From Centroscyllium fabricii (Eukaryota): a stretch of 64,000 nucleotides of DNA. Numbering within the stretch: position 1 is the stretch's first letter; each line of letters begins with the position of its first letter. The translations under genes were made by a program, and so were the position numbers. Below, piece by piece: positions 23,951-53,691 of the stretch. The DNA lies in the NCBI GenBank assembly GCA_051313645.2, contig JBNRSN020000015.1, forward strand, positions 44,640,001 to 44,704,000. The letters run 5' to 3'. Below the pieces are notes generated by a model, which worked only from the letters and a program-made list of their open reading frames with translations, was not told the origin of the DNA and ran no database searches.

Positions 23951-26219
23951 GTAAATCTTTGGAAATTCTACACTACATTAGATCTTCATTAACCTCTTTG
24001 CAGACCTGTATGTTTGTGAACCAGAGTAATACCTGCAGCAGTGGAACGGTGGATAACTGTTTCACATTCAGTTTTGTCAGGAATTACTCTGGTCACTCGC
24101 TAGTAAGCCAGTTACTAACACTGGCTTTATGCGGCACAATATGTTTCCATTTGGTTATTCTAGCACACAAAAAATTAAGTGGAAGTATTGTCATTAGGTA
24201 ATGAACTGAACTAGTTCAGTGGATACTAAATTCAGCTCTATGCCTTTGTCACATTAAGTTTTACAGGGGCAGGAAAATATATATTGTTCTGAAACACCAA
24301 TTGACCAATGGGAAACCAATAGGCCAAAACTTTTCAAGAAAAATTGTTTCCACTAAATAGCAGCACTGGATATAGAAGATGCAAATGTGACCAGCTGGGT
24401 TAAGAGAATTACTTTACTTGTGGGATATACCACACAATTGGGCTGGCAATTTGTGTTCAGAGGGAATATGTTTGGGGATATTAATTCTTGGACTCGCTAC
24501 TGTTTTCACTGCCTCCTCCCCAACACTTTAATATGACAAATGCTTCTATTTTCATATTTGTGAACTGTAAATGTGTTTTTAAATGGTTCTTATTGGAAAT
24601 ATGATGGAAGGAACAGAGCGTAATATCTTTTTTTCTCAAGAGATTTCTTGTTGTGATGTGACCGTGTTCCCAATTGCCATCAGTGTTCTCAGAGTCCAAC
24701 ATCTCCTGCATGTTGTGTTGCAATAAAATCTTGTGTTCGTGTAATTCACTGCACAATGAGGTCTATCTGTCCTGTGCATTTGAGGGGGAAGAGAAACAAA
24801 GCACTTCATTATGACAACTGTTGAGACTTCAAACTGATCGACGGGTGACATCTTGCATGTTGTGCATCATTTCTCTTTACCCCTTCAAGGGTTGGGGGTA
24901 TGTCCTTCCCCAAAGGCTGGAAACACCTTTTGCACCACTATAAAACATGCTGACTTTGCATTTCTGTGTATCAACCCACAGGCATCAGAGCTGCTTTCCA
25001 GTTCAATGGTTTTATTTGTCTACTCCACTTCAATGTCTGCCACATTCCTAATGCTTTCAGCAGGATTAGTCTTGTCTTTCTTACGCATGTTAAAAGATAA
25101 TACTACTTTGTAAATATAATCCCTTAAAGGGGCAGAATCCAGATTGGACACCCCCTCCCCTTATTTATAAATCACATTAATCTATTATTCATGGTTTCTG
25201 CAAAAATTTGGAATATTTTTGAATGGCGAGTGCTGTTGACATTGGGAACTGGCTGGGAAGAGTTACTGGGTCCAACGGTGTGAGGAGACTAAGTTAGCAT
25301 GCAGTTCATTTATTTTAATCTATTTTATCGATGCTACCATGATCAGTGCTCCTCTGAACTTCCCTTTTGCTCCGCTAATCTGCAACGCCCCATCTTGCAC
25401 GCTCTCCCTTGCCGCGTCTTTATTGTGTCTAAATCAAGATCATTGCACGGTCTCCAATTCTAACTCGTTCTTTCCCAGTATTTCAGAAATGTGGAACTCC
25501 TCATCTCCTTCAGTCTTTCCTTCCTCGTAAAATCTACAGGTTTTTAAAACCCAAACTTGATATTTAACCACTATTTCTTGATTCCCACTTTTTTCAGCCT
25601 TGATGGTGTCCTATAACGTGGGCCTTTCTGAATGAAATGTCTTGCCCTGCGGTCACCTTTACAAAGTTGCTGAAGGCAAAGATACTGATAATATTTGTCA
25701 TTGTGTTAATTCAGCTCCCTCACACTGTCAGGCTCCGTCTCTGTCAGTTTTGGAGTACTGCACAAATTTTAGTATTTTCCCCCCAGCACCAATAACGTAT
25801 TTGCCTTTTAGACTGTGTTTGTACCCGTGTGTGATAACTGTTGTATCTTTAAAATAAAACACGTTGATCACACCAATCTATAATGAGGCCTGATGATACA
25901 CTAATGTCATAAAGACACCCTCTTTGATTTTACTTTGCAACATTCCATCTGTGATTCTGGAAATTCTGGTAAGTTGAGAAAAGCATCTACATATAGCTGG
26001 TTAAAAAACTATCAGTGAAAATTTAATTTTTTTAAATTTGCATCAGAAACCTGAGTCATTTTAACATCAGATGGGCTTAGGACAAGATTGTTGGTTGACG
26101 ATAAAACTGGCAGAAGTGTGTAATTTTTGTTGTCGAGTTTGAAGTTATCCCAACCTGTCCTGACATTGTGAGGTCTTTGTATCCTATTTCATTGAGCCAA
26201 GCAGTGGAAAGCGACCTGA

Positions 26220-27656: not shown

Positions 27657-30650
27657 CCGTCCTGTCGCCCCCCCCGCCCGTCCTGTCGCCCCCCCGCCCG
27701 TCCTGTCGCCCCCCCCGCCCGTCCTGTCGCCCCCCCCCGCCCGTCCTGTCGCCCCCCCCGCCCGTCCTGTCGCCCCCCCCGCCCGTCCTGTCGCCCCGTC
27801 CCCGCCCGTCCTGTCGCCCCCCCCCGCCCGTCCTGTCGCCCCCCGCCCGTCCTGTCGCTCCCCCCGCCCGTCCTGTCGCCCCCCCGCCGTCCTGTCGCCC
27901 CCCCGCCCGTCCCTGTCGCCCCCCCGCCCGTCCTGTCGCCCCCCCGCCCGTCCTGTCGCCCCCCGCCCGTCCTGGTCGCCCCCCCGCCCCGTCCTGTCGC
28001 CCCCCCCGCCCGTCCTGTCGCCCCCCCGCCCGTCCTGTCGCCCCCCCGCCCGTCCTGTCGCCCCCCCGCCCCGCCCGTCCTGTCCCCCCCGCCCTCCGTC
28101 GCCCCCATCTCCCGCCTCCTGTCTCCCCCCGTCCTTTCCCCCCCCGCCCGTCCTGTCGCCCCCGGCCGTGCCTGTCGCCCCCGCCCGTCCGTTCGCCCCC
28201 CGCCCGTCCTGTCGCCCCCCCGCCCGTCCTGTCGCCCCCCCGCCCGTCCTGTCGCCCCCCCGCCCGTCCTGTCGCCCCCCGCCCGTCCTGTCGCCCCCCC
28301 GCCCGTCCTGTCGCCCCCCCGCCCGTCCTGTCGCCCCCCGCCCGTCCTGTCGCCCCCCCGCCCGTCCTGTCGCCCCCCGCCCGTCCTGTCGCCCCCCCGC
28401 CCGTCCTGTCGCCCCCCCGCCCGTCCTGTCGCCCCCCGCCCGTCCTGTCGCCCCCCCGCCCGTCCTGTCGCCCCCCCGCCCGTCCTGTCGCCCCCCGCCC
28501 GTCCTGTCGCCCCCCCCGCCCGTCCTGTCGCCCCCCGCCCGTCCTGTCGCCCCCCCGCCCGTCCTGTCGCCCCCCCGCCCGTCCTGTCGCCCCCCGCCCG
28601 TCCTGTCGCCCCCCCGCCCGTCCTGTCGCCCCCCCGCCCGTCCTGTCGCCCCCCCGCCCGTCCTGTCGCCCCCGCCCGTCCTGTCGCCCCCGCCCGTCCT
28701 GTCGCCCCCCCGCCCGGCCTGTCGCCCCCCCGCCCGTCCTGTCGCCCCCCCCCGTCCTGTCGCCCCCCCGCCCGTCCTGTCGCCCCCCCGCCCGTCCTGT
28801 CGCCCCCCCGCCCGTCCTGTCGCCCCCCGCCCGTCCTGTCGCTCCCCCGCCCGTCCTGTCGTCCCCCGCCCGTCCTGTCCCCCCCGCCCTTGCTATCCTC
28901 CCCCCCGCCCTTGCTATCCTTCCCCCTGCCCTTCCAGTCCTCCCCCCCCCCCCCCCCCCCCACCTCCCCCCCCCTTGCCGGTCCTGGTCCCCCCCCGCAT
29001 GTCATGTCCCCCCCCACCCGCCGGTCCTGTTGACCCCCCCCACCGCCCGTCCTGTCCCCCCACCACCCGTCCTGTCCCCCCCACCACCCGTCCTGTTTCC
29101 CACCCGCCCGTCCTGTCCCCACCCACCCGTCCTGTCCCCACCCACCCGTCCTGTCCCCACCCACCCGTCCTGTCCCCACCCACCCGTCCTGTCGTCCCCC
29201 CCGCCCGTCCTGTCGTCCCCCCGCCCGTCCTGTCGTCCCCCCGCCCGTCCTGTCGTCCCCCCCGCCCGTCCTGTCGTCCCCCCGCCCGTCCTGTCGTCCC
29301 CCCCCGCCCGTCCTGTCGTCCCCCCCCGCCCGTCCTGTCGTCCCCCCGCCCGTCCTGTCGTCCCCCCGCCCGTCCGTCGTCCCCGCCCGCCCGTCCTGTC
29401 GTCCCCCCCGCCCGTCCTGTCGTCCCCCGCCCGTCCTGTCGTCCCCCCCGCCCGTCCTGTCGTCCCCCCCGCCCGTCCTGTCGTCCCCCCGCCCGTCCTG
29501 TCGTCCCCCCCGCCCGTCCTGTCGTCCCCCCCGCCCGTCCTGTCGTCCCCCCCGCCCGTCCTGGTCGTCCCCCCGCCCGTCCTGTCGTCCCCCCCGCCCG
29601 TCCTGTCGTCCCCCCCGCCCGTCCTGTCGTCCCCCCCGCCCGTCCTGTCGTCCCCCCGCCCGTCCTGTCGTCCCCCCCGCCCGTCCTGTCGTCCCCCCGC
29701 CCGTCCTGTCGTCCCCCCGCCCGTCCTGTCGTCCCCCCGCCCGTCCTGTCGTCCCCCCCGCCCGTCCTGTCGTCCCCCCCGCCCGTCCTGTCGTCCCCCC
29801 CCGCCCGTCCTGTTTCCCCCCCGCCGTCCTGTTTCCCCCCCGCCCGTCCTGTTTCCCCCCCCGCCCGTCCTGTTTCCCCCCCCCGCCCGTCCTGTTTCCC
29901 CCCCCCGTCCTGTTTCCCCCCCGCCCGTCCTGTTTCCCCCCCGCCGTCCTGTTCCCCCGCCCGTCCTGTTTCCCCCCCCGCCCGTCCTGTTTCCCCCCCC
30001 GCCCGTCCTGTTTCCCCCCGCCCGTCCTGTTCCCCCCCGCCCGTCTGTTCCCCCCCCGCCCGTCCTGTTTCCCCCCCCCGCCCGTCCTGTTTCCCCCCCC
30101 GCCCGTCCTGTTTCCCCCCCCGCCCGTCCTGTTTCCCCCCCGCCCGTCCTGTTCCCCCCCGCCCGTCCTGTTCCCCCCCCGCCCGTCCTGTTTCCCCCCC
30201 GCCCGTCCTGTTTCCCCCCCGCCCCGTCCTGTTTCCCCCCCCCGCCCGTCCTGTTTCCCCCCCCCGCCCGTCCTGTTTCCCCCCCCCGCCCGTCCTGTTT
30301 CCCCCCCCCGCCCGTCCTGTTTCCCCCCCCCGCCCGTCCTGTTTCCCCCCCCCGCCCGTCCTGTTTCCCCCCCCGCCCGTCCTGTTTCCCCCCCGCCCGT
30401 CCTGTTTCCCCCCCCGCCCGTCCTGTTCCCCCCCCCGCCCGTTCTGTTTCCCCCCCGCCCGTCCTGTTTCCCCCCCCGCCCGTCCTGATTCCCCCCCCCC
30501 GCCCGTCCTGATTCCCCCCCCCGCCCGTCCTGTTTCCCCACCCCCCGCCCCGTCCTGTTTCCCCACCCCCCGCCCGTCCTGTTTCCCCCCCCCGCCCGTC
30601 CTGTTCCCCCCCCCCCCCGCCAGTCCTGTTCCCCCCCCCCTGCTAGTCCT
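27657..30650. repeat. C-rich, CpG-rich minisatellite of about 19-22 bp units, GCCCGTCCTGT(CG/CGT/TT)Cn
   Basis: Over 100 tandem units in three variant blocks; accounts for all Pro/Gly/Arg-rich ORFs here. Confidence 0.97.
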
Positions 30651-38400: not shown

Positions 38401-40569
38401 GCTTCTGGTGCCTGCCTCCGCTGAGGTAGCACTGACTGAGGGTATAGCACTGAGTGAGGGTGGACAGAGGGCTTTCCCAGGAGGTCACACTGCAGAAGTG
38501 TGTGGGGCTGGAGCCTTCTGAGGGACTGGTGAAACCTGCAACAAGTTGCCCCAGGCCTGAGACTGACTGGCCTTGGCCTACCAGCTGCCAATGAAGGCAG
38601 CTTAAATGTGGATCATAATGATGGACCTGCTGCTGATAATCAGGGAGCCGATTATGTTCCTGCGGGGTTTCAGGATGGCGGGTTTTGGGTGGGAAACGTT
38701 TTAAAATAGCCGGAGGCCCTTAAAATGGGATTATCCATAGCAATTAAGGGCCCTTAATGAGGATTACAAACATTCCCACTGGTGGTGGGCGGGAAAGATT
38801 TGGACCGGTTAGACACGCCGGACGAAAATTGCAAAGCGGCGAGGATCCGGCAGGAGGGGTCGGGACCCCCTGGTTTTGTGATTTTTAAGCCCCGCCCCGC
38901 CGGAAACTCGCCCTCATGGTCCTCTGAAAATCCCCCCCCATGGTTTTTGAATGTGTAAAGATCCAACTTGCATTATGAACTGCAAACCTACACAAAGAAG
39001 GCAAACAAGAGAACGGAAAGAAAGAGAGATGGGAGTAGAAGAGACAAAGGAAACAAATGGACGAAGACGACTAATTCCAAAAGAGGGCAGAACTGTAGCG
39101 AGGGAAAAGTGGATAATATGTTCTGAAAAAGAGATAGATAAATTAAATTGAAATGATGTAAAAAGACATATTGAAAGTAAAAAGACATATTGAAAGCAGA
39201 TTCTGTATCTGTGAATCACTGGACATTGCAAATCAAGTCACATCTCTTAAATTTGAAAATGTATCCATATTTCCATGTATCTTTAAATGATGTACTAAAG
39301 GTTATTGTGCCCTTTCAATATTCAAATCAGAAATATCTCCAGTATAAAACCAGTGTTATTAAATGGAAAATTTTAATTGACGACATTGATTTTTAAATTT
39401 ATTTTGAAGGTAACAACCTACCCTCACAACAGAGTCTTTTGTTTTGTCAGCTTTCCCCGCCCTTCATGAAAATGCCGACTCTTATTGGGGCTGCCCTCCA
39501 GTACCTTGCCCAAGTGGCCATTCTTCTTGTATGAATCTTTATGGTGAGTATCAGCAGGCTTTTCCACTGTGTAGGTCTTCACAGCAGGGCCTGAACCTGT
39601 TTTCACTCGATGCAAATATAGTCACTGGATAGCAATTAGTAGCTGTAGTCCTGGCTGATTTCCCCCGCTGCCCCTTCTAAATCGAATGGCACTGGTATTA
39701 ATTGTAACAACCCTACTGCTGCCCTGGCTAAGCTTTACTAACTCAATGCAGACCAGGAATAAAACGGAACGTTTTGGTCTATATGGCTTTTTACAATATT
39801 GGGTAGAGTCTTCTTCCATTTTGCCACTGAGGGTGCCCTCTGCAAAAATAAATGCGATTTTTGCATTTGTTGTAGGACAAAGTGGGTAAAAAGTAAACAG
39901 CTGATTAATCTTTTGTTTCTCTTAACTTAATTTCTTTTGTAACAAAATGATTGTTAGGGGGAAGGTGTAACATTGATTACAGAATGGTTTAAAAACACAT
40001 GGGTTTTTCAAAAATGTTTCATAAGTCCAGTTGGTTTTTCTTGGTTTAGCTTATAGCAGGACTTGAGTTGACAGTAAAGTTGCATTGCCCAGTACCATTA
40101 ATTGGGGTGACAGTACTGTTACAATGGAAGTGCTATCTGCTTTAAGTATAAATCCAAGTCCTTAATAGAATGTATGCCCACAATCATGGAAACTGGTTCC
40201 TCCCATTATCAATTTCCGCACTGATAGAATTAATTTCAGCTGCCGGAAATGGTCGAACTCGGGAACAAAATGTGGCGTCAGTTTCAAGCTAGGCTCACCA
40301 CAAAAATAAATTACTTTCAAATCGAGCAGATAGTTTACTAAGACTGAGGTATTCCAGTTCATCAAGCCTACTAATAACAGTGAATCCCCTAAGTGATTAT
40401 TGTTTTGTGCTAAACAGTATTTCATTGAGAGAGTTCCAACGGTTTTACGCAAAAAGCCTTGACCCCCCCTCCATAATTAAACTTTCTTTTGTTTGTGTGT
40501 GTGTCGAGGGGGAGGGGCAGGGGGTTTAAAAACGGAACAGAAGGACAAGATAGTTGACAAAATAGTAAT

Positions 40570-41955: not shown

Positions 41956-44200
41956 ATAGGTTGGATGAGTAAGGTTGACCCAGATTATTACTAGGTGGGG
42001 GGTGGGAGATGCTGTCCATCAGTGTTTAAATCAGAGGTTGATGTAAATGAAGATTTTTCTTTTCTTTGCCACCCCACCCACCCCTTTTCGTTCTATAATC
42101 TCATGTCCCTGGGTCACATTCTTTTGAGTCCATCTTGGGCAGGTGCTGTTCTGAATTAGTCACAAGGATGTGCCAAGAGCAGACTGATAATACACTTGCC
42201 TCTAATGTTTCTTCCTTTGATTGTGAGGCAGCCCCTGGCCTCTGCTCATAGAAACATAGAAGATAGGAGCAGGAGTAGGCCATTCGACCCTTCGAGCCTG
42301 CTCCGCCATTCAATGAGATCATGGCTGATCATCCAAACCCAGTACCCTGTCCCTGCCCTCCCCCCACATCCCTCGATCCCTATTGAGCCTGCACTGACAC
42401 ACATCCCACCCCAGTAGGATTGAGACTGTGAATGAAGGGATGTTGAACCCATGCCTCATCCCTCCATCCCCTTTATGCTTCACTATTGGTGGCAAAGCCA
42501 TTTTGCTGTGGAATTTTCCTAAACCCCTCTCCACTTATTCCCTCTTGCTACTTCTCCATCCACCTTTAAAATCTCTTTTTAACAAAAAATCCTATCTCTT
42601 TAACTGAGCTTTCAGTCACCTCCCATATCTCCCTATCTCCTGCTCGGCGTCAGTGGATTTGTAGTTACAATAACCTCAATGTCACGTGGCCTCCGTCTAC
42701 AATCATCCCCAGCATTATTAACGGTAAAATGTTGAAAATTAATGCATTATGTAGTCTAAATAGAAGTGCTAGCTTGGATGTAATCAGATTTGGGTGAAAT
42801 AAACACTGGAACATGAGCGAATACATAACTCGCTCTCCCTCATTCCTGACTCCTGTCTTGTGCTGGTTGATATGGTCTGAATTTTTGTAGGACAATTTAA
42901 GAACAGGAAAAGCCCATCAATGAATAATCCCACTTCACCTTCCAGCATCCTATACATTCTATAACACTGCCACTTCCCATTAATATTTTGTGTACAAATT
43001 GCACTGTACATGGTTGTGCCTTAAAGTGACTAATGGGAGAAGCAGTCTCCAGGCCGAGCACCTGCATATGATGCAGATGTCCAATAAAAACTACTCTTAA
43101 TGTGGTAAGGTGATGCAGCTTACCCCAAAGTGTTAGCAAGCAAGTTCGCTCCCACAAATTCCCAACACATGTCTGTTACCAATCTTGACCATGTAATGAA
43201 ATGGAGGGTGCCCATTCCCACAGGAGTGTATCACCTAATACTGGGTCACTCCCAATATCAGCGGTACTAGGCTGCCCACACATCCTTAGCTAGGATATGA
43301 AGGCTTATGACCTAGAGGGATCTGGAAGATGGAGTTAAATTCAGAAACACTTTGTCAGAGTCTCAACACTGCAGCTTACAGCCAGGAGTCTTGCTCTGTG
43401 CTTATCCTGTGGCTTGTCCTAGTTGTGTACATGAATCTATTATGTGACATTCACCATTATTAAGGGTTTAGCAGTAAAAAACAAATAGTGATTCAGCTTT
43501 GTTTTAATATTGCTTTATTATAAAGTGTAATTAATATATTTTCATGTTTATTTTTTGATCCTTTAACACTTTACTGTTTTTGTTGTATTTGACTTATTTT
43601 TGTAGTTTATGGTCATAAGAATATAAAATCTGGAGTGAGAAAAGAACATTCAACCCATCAAGCTTGGCCCATTCAGAGTCTTCATATAATTCTACCACCA
43701 CCAACTATTGATTTCCTACTTTAAGGAACATTAACTTTCTTCTACATCTTCAACCCTGCTTCTCAACAGACAATGTTTCAGCTCCCTTTTGGACATGCTA
43801 ATTGACCCTGAATTAACTACCTTCTCTGGGAGTCTGTTTCACATGTCTCCTATCCTCTGTTCTGGGAGTTTTCTAATCTCTCACATTTATCAGTGTCGTT
43901 ATAAATTGAATTATGACTTATCGTGATTTTTAGTGGCTATTATAAAAGATGTTTGTGGAAACCAGTGGACATTGTCACACTGCCTTTTCCTGTTCAATAA
44001 CTGGAAGAAATTCTCTGTTCATTACTGCTCTGTGGCTAGTAGACATTTCAACCCTAGCAGCGCACTGTATCAATGGCAAAGAGCACATAGAAACATCTTT
44101 CAAGTCAATCAAATCTCTTCTGATTTGATCCAATTTCTCCAGCATTTGTACATCATATACTAGCTCTCCTTAAATCAAGCTTTTGGTCACCTGTCCTAAT

Positions 44201-49790: not shown

Positions 49791-50185
49791 TTTATTGGGA
49801 AGATGGGAACAGAGGCTTAATTTCTATTCTTTCACCCTGTGACTGGAACTTGCGCCAACCCAGCCTCAGTCTGATGCAAATTAAAACCCGAGTGTACCCA
49901 GATCCCAAGAGCGAACAGTACGAGACTTACCCTACCAGTCTGTACAGCTGGTTCCAGTTTGGCACCAAGTCTCAAGCCAGGAGGGTAAGCAGTAGTTTGG
50001 CCAGCAGGTGGTGCTGTTCTGAAAGTGGAAGATCAGCATTGCTGCTGGATCATCAGACATTGCACCTGAAGTTGAATATTCTTATTTTCTAGCATGCGAA
50101 TGGCCTCACTTTTGGGAGCATATTTACCAACTTGGTACTTGTTCATGATTTAAATGCTGACATTGTTTTGTAAATGTTTCCACAG

Positions 50186-50738
50186 GACAGAATCCTCAGC
50201 GAAGCCAGTCACATGACTCAATGAATTCTCCAGACCACCGCGATTCCCCATTGCCACGGAGAGGGCCATCGCCAGCTGAAAATGCAATAGCACCTCCCAG
50301 GAGGGATAAGTTACCACCTTCCTTCCAGATGCCAGGTCGGCCTCCATATGGTGAAATTCCACATGGGATTCCACCCCCAGGCCTTCTGCCCCCTCCTATG
50401 CCACTTCCTCTCAACTCTGGGTACGGACCACCACTTCAGATGCAGCCAGGACCCTTGCCCCCACCAGGTGCATTCTTAGCCCGACCTGGCCCTCCAGGAT
50501 CTATTGTACCCCCGTTGCCACCAGGACTCCCTCCCCACTTAGTAGTGCCTCCTCCAGGTGCTGTTCCACCTGCACCTCACATCAATCCTGCCTTCTTTAT
50601 ACCACCAAATGCCGGCTTGCCTCCACCAGTTGATAACAGAGGACTCCCACCACCACCACCACCACCACCACCACCATCGGATGCCTACGGTAGGCCGCCA
50701 CCACCTCAGTACAACAGAGAGGAATTCAAACGTGGAAG
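50186..50738 (+). CDS. CPSF7: CPSF7-like coding exon D (proline-rich region)
   Basis: ccacag|GA CAG AAT ... GGA AG|gtaggt, 553 nt, in frame with exons C and E. Contains LPPHLVVPPPGAVPPAPHINPAFF (CPSF7 has [24 protein letters not shown]). Confidence 0.93.
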
Positions 50739-50741
50739 GTA

Positions 50742-51038
50742 GGTGAACCTGTGGAATTCTCTACCACAGAAGACAATTGAGGCCAATTCATTAAATATAT
50801 TCAAGAAGGAGTTAGATATATTTCTTAAGGCTAAAGGGATATGGGGACAAGGCAGGGACAGGGTACTGAATTTGGATGATCATTGAATGGGGGAGCAGGC
50901 TCGATAGGGATCGAGGGATATGGGGACAAGGCAGGGACATGGTACTGAATTTGGATGATCAGCCATGATCTCATTGAATGGTGGAGCAGGCTCGAGGGGC
51001 CGAATGGCCTACTCCTGCTCCTACCTTCTATGTTTCTA
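50742..51038 (+). mobile_element. CR1 3' fragment / SINE-tail chimera inserted in the exon D splice donor
   Basis: ggtgaacctgtggaattctctaccacaga...ctatgtttcta; flanked by GTA at 50739-50741 and 51039-51041. Confidence 0.88.
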
Positions 51039-51493
51039 GTAAGGCCTGTCCAGCTGAGCTGCATGATCTTATGATTTTAGCTACTTTTCTAGCTCAGTGG
51101 TTAAATGGGTAGACTGAGAAAACCTGAGGTTTGCGCTCTCTGCTATGCTGATTTACTCGATCACTACAATTGGGATTGAGGGGGATGATCAGCGAGTGTT
51201 CTGATCTCTATCCAGTGACACTTACTGGCTCGTTTAGATGTTGGATGAGGACAGGATTGGGCTCGGCCGTGGCACAATATGAGCTTTCCTGGGGAGTAAG
51301 TTGCAAGACTAATTTTGGGGGTTGATGAGGTTTAGAGTCAGTCATTAAGTTATACAGCACAGAAAGAGGCTCTTTTCTGTACAACACATACAATTTCTCA
51401 TTTCTTATGGTATGAAATATCTATACAGGACACTGAAAATTACGGCTCCCACATGTAACTGCAAGATTCTGTTTCACGGTGAGATGCAGAAAA

Positions 51494-51798
51494 CGGCACG
51501 GTGGCATAGTGGTTAGCACTGTTGCCTCACAGCACTGGAGACCCGGGTTCAAATCCAGCCTCGGGTACTATCTGTGTGGAGTTTGCACATTCTCCCCATG
51601 TCTGTGTGGGTTTCCTCCGGGTGCTCCGGTTTCCTCCCACAGTCCAAAGATGTGCGGGTTAGGTTGATTGGCCAGGATAAATTGACCCTTAGTGTTAGGG
51701 GGATTGAATAGGTGGGGTTACGGGGATAGGGTGGGATATGTGTCGGTGCAGGCTCGATGGGCCGAAATGGCCTCTATCTGCACTGTAGGGATTCTATG
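51494..51798 (+). mobile_element. HE1-like V-SINE, short-tail variant
   Basis: Same head and V-domain; ends gcaggctcgatgggccgaaatggcctctatctgcactgtagggattctatga. Confidence 0.88.
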
Positions 51799-52808
51799 AA
51801 AACTGTGGGTGATTGGGGCTGAATAATTATAGCAGTAATCAGTTAATAAGTTCATTACTCAAAACCACGGGAATTAAGCCATTAATGTTTTTAATATAAT
51901 CTATCTAATATCTAGCAGATTTCCCATGGCTTTGCTCATGTAATTCAGAGGATGCGTTGTTTTATATAGACAGGAACATTAAACCATGTTATGTGCAATG
52001 TAATGCTCTGTTATTAAGGGAGATCTGTGGGTAATTTGGCTTGTCCCTTCAAGGTCACATGGCCATATTGCTGTAAATAGGCACATGCTGAGGTCATATT
52101 TGCTGTTAGACACATTTTGAAGTCAATTAAAGACGATTGTTGTTGTTGCAGGGAGAGTTTATCTGAAACTAGCAAGAAATGAGTGAGCTTTCTTGTTTTT
52201 TTTACTTTCATTAAGTGTGACGCTGTAATGTTCATGTGATACCCGGAGTGGGAGGGTTGTGCTGGTCTCCTGAGGCATTGCTCACATGTAACCTGGGATT
52301 TGGCGAATATTTGTAATTTTTTAGATACCAACCTGCCCTCTTAAAAATGGTCTAAATAGGCAACTCATGGTTAATTAGAGGCCAATTGATGATGCTGTTG
52401 GAAGTTTCTCTAGATTGGCAGTTGTTTGGGGAGGGATAAGGTTATCTCAAGATCAGAAAAAGCCGCAGGAAATGAAGGGCTTTCTTTTTCTTTGTATGTG
52501 TGTACTTTTTAAGATTGTTCTGTTGTTATTTATGGTACTTCATGTCTGAGGTGATTGATGACTGTTTTATTTTGATTTATATGTTAATAAAGTCTGTCTG
52601 AAGTGTGACAGACACACTGGACAACGCATTATGGAATGTTGCAGCACATAAACAGGTGATTTGGTCCAACAAGCTCCATGCTGTAGTCTGGAGTGATGAG
52701 CCTCGGGCCTGAGCCTGCAATTCTTCCACACAGTCAGCTCCTGATTTTAGTCATACCACTGTGGAGTCCAAATGTTCTGCAAGGAGCGGAGAATAAAACA
52801 ATAGGACC

Positions 52809-53176
52809 AGTGGTTAGCATTGTTGCCTCACAGCACTGGAGTCCCGGGTTCAAATCCGGCCTCGGGTACTATCTGTGTGGAGTTTGCACATTCTCCCCGT
52901 GTCTGCGTGGGTTTCCTCCGGGTGCTCCGGTTTCCTCCCACAGTCCAAAGATGCGCGGGTTAGGTTGATTGGCCATGATAAATTGACCCTTAGTGTTAGG
53001 GGGATTGAATATATGGGGATAGGGTGGGATATGTGTTGATGCAGGCTCGATAGGGATATGGGGAGAGGGCAGGGGCGGGGTACTGGGTTTGGATGATCAG
53101 CCATGATCTCATTGAATGGCGGAGCAGGCTCGAAGGGCCGAATGGCCTACTCCTGCTCCTAGTTTCTATGTTTCTA
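52809..53176 (+). mobile_element. HE1-like V-SINE, long CR1-tail variant (3' fragment of the same type on - at 42247-42412)
   Basis: V-domain plus tail ggatgatcagccatgatctcattgaatggcggagcaggctcgaagggccgaatggcctactcctgctcc. Confidence 0.88.
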
Positions 53177-53575
53177 TAATTCTATCAAATATTTGATGCT
53201 TTCACCTGCTGTGTTGGAGGCTGGGATAACATTCCCTCCTAATAGAATTTCCTCACTTTCTTTTGCTGGACAGCAAGAAAAGAGAGGGATCAGCTTTGAT
53301 CTCCGCTGTGTTAACATCCTACAGCTAGCCAGACAAGCTATGAATGGATACCCAGAGGCACATGGAGCACCAAGTCTGCCAAGTGATTTTCTTAAGTACA
53401 CTGAAGAACTAGGCCATTGATGACCTAGTATGCATTTTCTGCCCCTATTATCAGTGAAACGTTCTGAGTTACCACTAGTTATCTTTGCGGACATCACGTT
53501 TGTGCAGCATGATGTCTGAAGCGATTGCTGACTGTTTTATTTTGATTTATGAGAATCCATGTCCTTTCCTTGCAG

Positions 53576-53691
53576 AGATCCTGACCCCAGCAGTCCTCCT
53601 CTGAACGAGGCAGAGTTTGAAGAGATGATGAACAAGAACCGAGCGATCTCTAGCAGTGCCATCTCCAAAGCTGTGTCTGGAGCCAGCACAG
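53576..53691 (+). CDS. CPSF7: CPSF7-like coding exon E
   Basis: ttgcag|A GAT CCT ... ACA G|gttagt, 116 nt. [38 protein letters not shown]; ISKAVSGAS is CPSF7-type (CPSF6 has ISRAVSDAS). Not in the ORF track. Confidence 0.95.

Follow-up and report, generated by a model that had tools for sequence, protein, structure and literature searches.

When a retroelement begins only a few nucleotides into an intron, the question arises of whether it destroyed and rebuilt the 5' splice site or whether it spared a donor that was already there. In the window analysed here (the whole stretch of 64,000 nt), such an element occupies positions 50742-51038, behind a coding exon that ends ...GGAAG at 50738 in phase 2 and inside an intron that opens GTAGGT (50739-50744). 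A first-pass annotation had proposed that a CR1 3' fragment integrated at +4 of the donor with duplication of a GTA target, that the LINE supplied the present +4 to +6, and that the former donor, GTAAGG (51039-51044), came to lie downstream. The letters and coordinates behind this proposal are all correct, including the TAG at 50740-50742 and the start of the next exon at 53576, and so are the limits set for the repeat, with other copies in the window aligning from 50742 and ending at 51038. The history that we read from these letters is a different one: comparison with element-free relatives points to an insertion that is specific to this lineage and that removed a short piece of the target site, through which the donor would have gained only +6 and the positions beyond it, and to this reading we assign a probability of about 70%.

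The exon concerned is a proline-rich one (50186-50738, forward strand, phase 1 to phase 2), delimited by protein alignment and by a spliced contig of run X18 in which an upstream exon is joined to 50186. Synteny with SDHAF2 indicates that its host gene is CPSF7 (CFIm59): the only match in the genome to the Sdh5 (SDHAF2) domain lies ~19 kb ahead of the window, in the opposite orientation, and CPSF7 and SDHAF2 of dog are described as overlapping (PMC7349241). A paralogue is present on another contig of the genome, solved structures do not discriminate between CPSF6 and CPSF7, as the RRM structures of both match, and the exon used as a query retrieves shark CPSF6/7-like proteins whose database names are mixed between CPSF6 and CPSF7. 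The exon is 88-97% identical to 21 shark and ray proteins (the alignment took in 21 of the 29 listed), and its reading frame, 50161-50742, ends in REEFKRGR-stop. The following exon (R-DPDPSS...ASTG; 53576-53691, forward strand) was located by tblastn with shark orthologues, and all 21 aligned proteins retain the RD side of the RG-RD junction across the 50738/53576 intron, with one of them reading RA. Exactly at the equivalent junction, isoform X1 of Mustelus asterias (P0002) carries 13 extra residues, an addition that may reflect an alternative donor, an alternative acceptor or a micro-exon. A scan of metagenome contigs for the end of the CPSF7 exon found none.

Within the proline-rich exon, a (CCA)10 run at 50647-50676 adds six prolines (18 nt) relative to all 21 aligned proteins and to the contigs of the three relatives introduced below; run X3, a second sample of the window organism, breaks at this run and gives no confirmation of it. 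A cassette exon of ~31 codons (~39432-39543), which matches isoform X1 of P0008 and P0011, follows the RRM exons and precedes the proline-rich exon, and in a contig of run X9 the end of this cassette exon is connected to 50185. The donor at 23951, behind the third matched exon and before the cassette exon, shows weak U1 pairing (-3.2 kcal/mol). Within the long intron of the gene, positions 27657-30619 are occupied by a C-rich tandem repeat of 20 nt in ~146 copies, with a G+C content of 0.8.

For the history of the donor itself, we compared positions 50186-51400 with four of 21 runs, namely X3 and the runs X5, X6 and X13 of three related organisms, here called B, C and D. The pre-insertion allele of the window lineage itself is not among these sequences. 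The element at 50742-51038 is absent from all three, with one contig each crossing the site. In B and C (X5 record 16 and X6 record 23), the contig matches 50186-50743 and 51042-51333 with 15 letters between the two blocks, while in D (X13 record 1) it matches 50186-50743 and 51036-51333 with nine letters between; a count that starts at the G at 50743 and ends at the A at 51042 gives 15 for each of the three relatives and 298 for the window. Judged by their alignment end points, all three stop at 50743, which is donor +5. The presence of GTAGG in three of three relatives that lack the element shows that donor +1 to +5 (50739-50743, forward strand), together with the TAG that it holds, is host sequence. 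The in-frame TAG does close the exon's frame, as the first-pass annotation had it, and it is found in the relatives as well. From the same end points it appears that the relatives have a letter other than T at +6, and the T of the window, which is the U1 consensus base, was likely supplied by the element along with +7 and +8 (50744-50746, forward strand). Of the three donor positions that had been ascribed to the LINE, only +6 remains with it, +4 and +5 being matched in all three relatives without the element.

The remainder of the empty site departs further from what had been expected. A target duplicated at +4 predicts that the exon is followed by GTAAGGCC, with one GTA and then AGGCC; all three relatives have 17 more letters, keeping GTAGG and 15 letters ahead of AGGCC, which speaks against an element integrated at +4 and flanked by a duplicated GTA target. 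Nor would the donor have been rebuilt from GTAAGG, since GTAGG already stands at +1 to +5 where the element is absent. GTAAGG, which is seen in D and unmatched in B and C (neither has a match at 51036-51041), occupied roughly +18 to +23 before the insertion, where it was not the donor, and the notion of a displaced old splice site falls with this position. The relatives in fact carry five of the six letters of GTAGGT with no LINE present and lack only the +6 T, close to the finding that the annotation itself had named as contrary to its model. The host letters missing from the window number from nine (D) to 15 (B and C), that is, at most 20 nt. The three relatives have many differences from the window organism in common and may form a single clade instead of three independent outgroups; against B and C, the flank differs at 18 of 292 positions. 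At 51109, the three relatives have 15-16 more letters than the window, and their lack in the window lineage indicates that separate small deletions occur here. In X3, a single error-free contig spans 51011-51369 and no second contig covers the flank, a weak hint that the insert is fixed; its 28 letters within the element fall below the 31-letter threshold, and the 5' junction of the insert is left uncovered.

These observations bear directly on the GTA that stands on both sides of the insert. GTA as part of the element was rejected, as it precedes only four of the 119,924 exact copies of the CR1 word formed by the first 20 nt of the insert, and one of the four belongs to an intact copy (L056), in which it is a variant at an internal position. 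In a sample made up of the first 30 of 73,782 matches to the SINE junction described below, a direct repeat of at least 3 nt flanks 15 and one of at least 4 nt flanks 10, compared with chance levels of 32% and 12% in 870 mismatched flank pairs with comparable boundary slack. The SINE family can make short duplications, and a 3-nt direct repeat such as GTA is not above chance. Read against the empty site, the apparent duplication is best regarded as a coincidence of two host GTA triplets 17 nt apart. One could still save the insertion at +4 by supposing that 17 nt between the two triplets were lost here, or gained in B, C and D, so that a GTAAGG donor existed before the element arrived with its GTA duplication. 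Such a donor would pair well with U1 (-10.0 kcal/mol in the model), duplications of 3-5 nt are typical of L2-clade elements (PMC4245944) and occur in this SINE family, GTA does flank the insert on both sides, and B, C and D may be a single clade. However, this history requires one base to have been hit by both an indel and an insertion, and it leaves to chance the match of the first two letters of the element to +4/+5 in three of three relatives and the match of its last three letters to D. A 3-nt repeat, moreover, is produced by chance in about a third of pairs. We consider it quite improbable.

The 5' end of the insert shows a short overlap with the host, and the 3' end may do so as well. 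At the 5' end, the GG at 50742-50743 fits both partners, the relatives' matches ending at 50743 and the element copies beginning at 50742, which amounts to a microhomology of 2 nt. A longer homology between the exon end and the sequence upstream of CR1 copies (shared GAGGAATT) was rejected, with a shuffle p of 0.075 and 256 of 3412 window 30-mers ending in GG scoring as high. At the 3' end (51036-51044, forward strand), the tail closes in CTA and is followed by GTAAGG; by the alignment end points of D, the one relative that resumes at 51036 (B and C do so at 51042), CTA was probably also part of the host target and would constitute a second microhomology.

The insert measures 297 nt, lies in sense orientation to the gene, and is a chimera of a CR1-like sequence and a SINE tail, so that its description as a CR1 3' fragment holds for the first half and fails for the second. 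The 5' part (50742-50904, forward strand), defined on copies in the window to which it is 85-93% identical, comprises a 5'-truncated CR1-like ORF2 end and 3'UTR with a private internal deletion; an ORF2 C-terminal motif makes its membership of the CR1 clade probable. The 3' part (50895-51038, forward strand) is the tail of a SINE family and ends in a TTTCTATG-type microsatellite. Its junction 32-mer has 73,782 exact copies in the genome and a SINE body upstream in 30 of 30 fetched loci. This tail may be of the HE1/HER1 type. Copies of the family end in TTTCTATG-type repeats, in agreement with the 8-nt microsatellite 3' end expected of a CR1-clade LINE (compare the 8-bp microsatellite in PMC5729268).

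The two halves overlap in a 10-nt word (50895-50904) that is present in both. The form that combines the internal deletion with the junction occurs once in the genome, and a chimera propagated as a master was set aside on this ground, none having been seen. CR1-type 3'UTR letters upstream of the SINE junction have 92 matches in the genome, of which 15 were fetched: six lie in two tandem arrays, five are SINEs with a doubled 91-nt unit, three are CR1/SINE-tail joins resembling the present insert and one is truncated. Template switching at the shared word appears to be the simplest cause of the chimera, although it may instead have arisen by recombination between copies. Tandem doublings and arrays (L003-L013, L016) originate from a 10-nt word of which there are two occurrences at a spacing of 91 nt. 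tRNA-type SINEs with a CR1-like tail were found at the loci L018-L047 and, within the window, at 51494-51800, 52805-53176 and 42249-42392.

Relative to the shared tail, the bin that contains the SINE junction is 206-428-fold shallower in X5, X6 and X13 than in X3, a ratio of depth and not of copy number. This scarcity of the junction in B, C and D, roughly 200-430-fold, argues that the SINE spread in the window lineage and that the polarity at our site is insertion, specific to that lineage; a lineage-specific burst of the SINE may contribute to the 7.2 Gb genome. Compared with the majority letters of 30 family copies, the tail of the insert has differences at seven of 144 positions, five of them private, which, set beside the 18 differences in the 292 flanking letters, is compatible with an insertion after the split. 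The opposite polarity, with an element ancestral to all four organisms and deleted almost entirely in B, C and D so as to leave GG, nine letters and CTA between the GTA triplets, would explain why the relatives' extra letters resemble the element in starting with GG and, for D, in finishing close to CTA. The letters between, however, match neither end of the element (matching breaks off at 50743 and sets in again at 51036 or 51042), and the SINE behind the 3' half is far scarcer in exactly these three organisms. Of all the histories discussed here, this is the one to which we give the least credence.

Taken together, the empty site, the junctions and the SINE distribution suggest the following course for the lineage-specific insertion. 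Reverse transcription would have been primed near intron position +17, where the CTA of the tail perhaps annealed to a target CTA (as seen in D only), would have begun on a SINE RNA and would have switched to a CR1 RNA at the common 10-nt word. The GG microhomology would then have served to join the 5' end to the host, and +6 to about +14 would have been lost in the process. The resulting allele may have been tolerated because the donor core stayed intact and the T acquired at +6 can pair with U1, and splicing from 50738 to 53576 would continue as in other sharks. Losses of this size have precedents, short target-site truncations being given for 5 of 25 ZfL2-2 inserts (PMC2666801) and for 6 of 30 ZfL2-1 inserts in HeLa-RC cells (PMC4245944). 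It is also conceivable that two steps were involved, an ordinary insertion at about +17, with a duplication or none, and a later deletion that removed +6 to +14 or +17 together with the 5' part of a longer element and was sealed at GG. The donor core would again be host sequence, and the end state would be the same as that of a one-step truncation. The private internal deletion in the element and the 15-16 nt indel at 51109 show that small deletions happen here, and a SINE family able to make duplications suits the ordinary first step. Yet two events would be needed at one spot, and a short truncation with 5' microhomology is known as a one-step product (PMC2666801, PMC4245944). We regard the two-step course as unlikely, while ranking it ahead of the other alternatives.

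The element begins inside the U1 footprint. We calculated duplex energies with the U1 5' end of this genome; these refer to unmodified RNA and are not MaxEntScan scores. The present donor GTAGGT yields -11.1 kcal/mol, a value that no other GT site between 50186 and 53576 reaches and that is on par with the best other donors of the gene (-3.2 to -11.2 kcal/mol for five others), while the same donor with a base other than T at +6 yields -9.2 to -9.7 kcal/mol. With the +6 T, the pairing predicted for U1 likely rose in strength from about -9.2 kcal/mol to the present -11.1 kcal/mol. The GTAAGG site at 51039 reaches only -5.0 kcal/mol, a value that 27 of 175 intronic GT sites, itself included, equal or surpass, and three other GTRAG sites exist in the same intron. 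It is an unremarkable, weak donor-like site and would be cryptic at noise level at most. Extension of the exon to 51038 would add 300 nt and leave a distance of 296 nt between the TAG and the new junction. A stop codon more than 50-55 nt before a junction triggers nonsense-mediated decay, and by this rule the extended isoform would be a target. The prior weight that we can give to such an isoform is small, with -5.0 set against -11.1 kcal/mol.

Within the insert, a scan of 50744-51038 for acceptor-like sites (YAG with at least nine pyrimidines in 14) found none; an AG ending at 51039, just outside the scanned interval, follows the pyrimidine-rich tail. A sense ATTAAA at 50790-50795, 52 nt into the intron, is a feature of the family, and no other poly(A)-type hexamer precedes it in this intron. 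Its use in this intron is speculation. More ambitious still is the idea that the +6 T fixed the insert by strengthening the donor, and that ATTAAA (at +52) together with the host TAG (at +2) yields a stable CFIm59 without its RS domain by intronic polyadenylation, at a level set by U1 binding, as a feedback switch; we hold this to be highly improbable.

The position of the insert is unusual, whereas the kind of event would be an ordinary one. In mammals, fixed transposable elements are depleted near exon boundaries, with the donor side more tolerant than the acceptor side (PMC3088655), and from this depletion the position appears uncommon. Our literature search, in which subscription journals were poorly covered, found no report from sharks of a transposable element that overlaps a donor and supplies a consensus base, and none of this locus; narrow terms for splice sites reconstituted at retroposon insertions also returned none. 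The locus offers a clean natural example of a retroelement that landed within the U1 footprint of a conserved gene's donor and survived, the core letters spared and a consensus +6 gained. It also carries a warning, as a 3-nt repeat read from a single genome is not the same as a target-site duplication. Beyond this, the insert can serve as a presence/absence marker for this shark lineage, and it reveals a SINE family amplified in the window organism and scarce in three relatives. Greater weight would come only if RNA showed a regulated truncated CFIm59, produced through the cryptic donor or the ATTAAA of the element.

Several known systems resemble parts of this locus. Among them are the ZfL2-1 and ZfL2-2 assays of zebrafish elements, which likewise produced 5'-truncated inserts with at most 20 nt of the target lost and microhomology at the 5' end (PMC2666801, PMC4245944); ours differs in being a natural CR1-like insertion whose truncation falls inside the U1 footprint of a splice donor. 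Sharks and rays also possess the HE1 V-SINE and the HER1 LINE, a SINE/LINE pair with a common 3' end, and in sharing a 3' tail between a tRNA-type SINE and a shark LINE this pair is like the present one (PMC3747384); unlike it, the SINE junction here is abundant only in the window organism among the four organisms compared. The passerine TguSINE1/PittSINE system combines a CR1-derived tail, an 8-nt microsatellite end and a chimera explained by template switching (PMC5729268), whereas here the switch would have led from a SINE tail to a LINE body and left a dead single copy, with no new family. Finally, the zones in which transposable elements are under-represented near mammalian exons (PMC3088655) cover positions within 20 nt of an exon, where ours lies; the present element goes beyond this in overlapping the donor itself and, as the comparison with its relatives suggests, in supplying one of its consensus bases.
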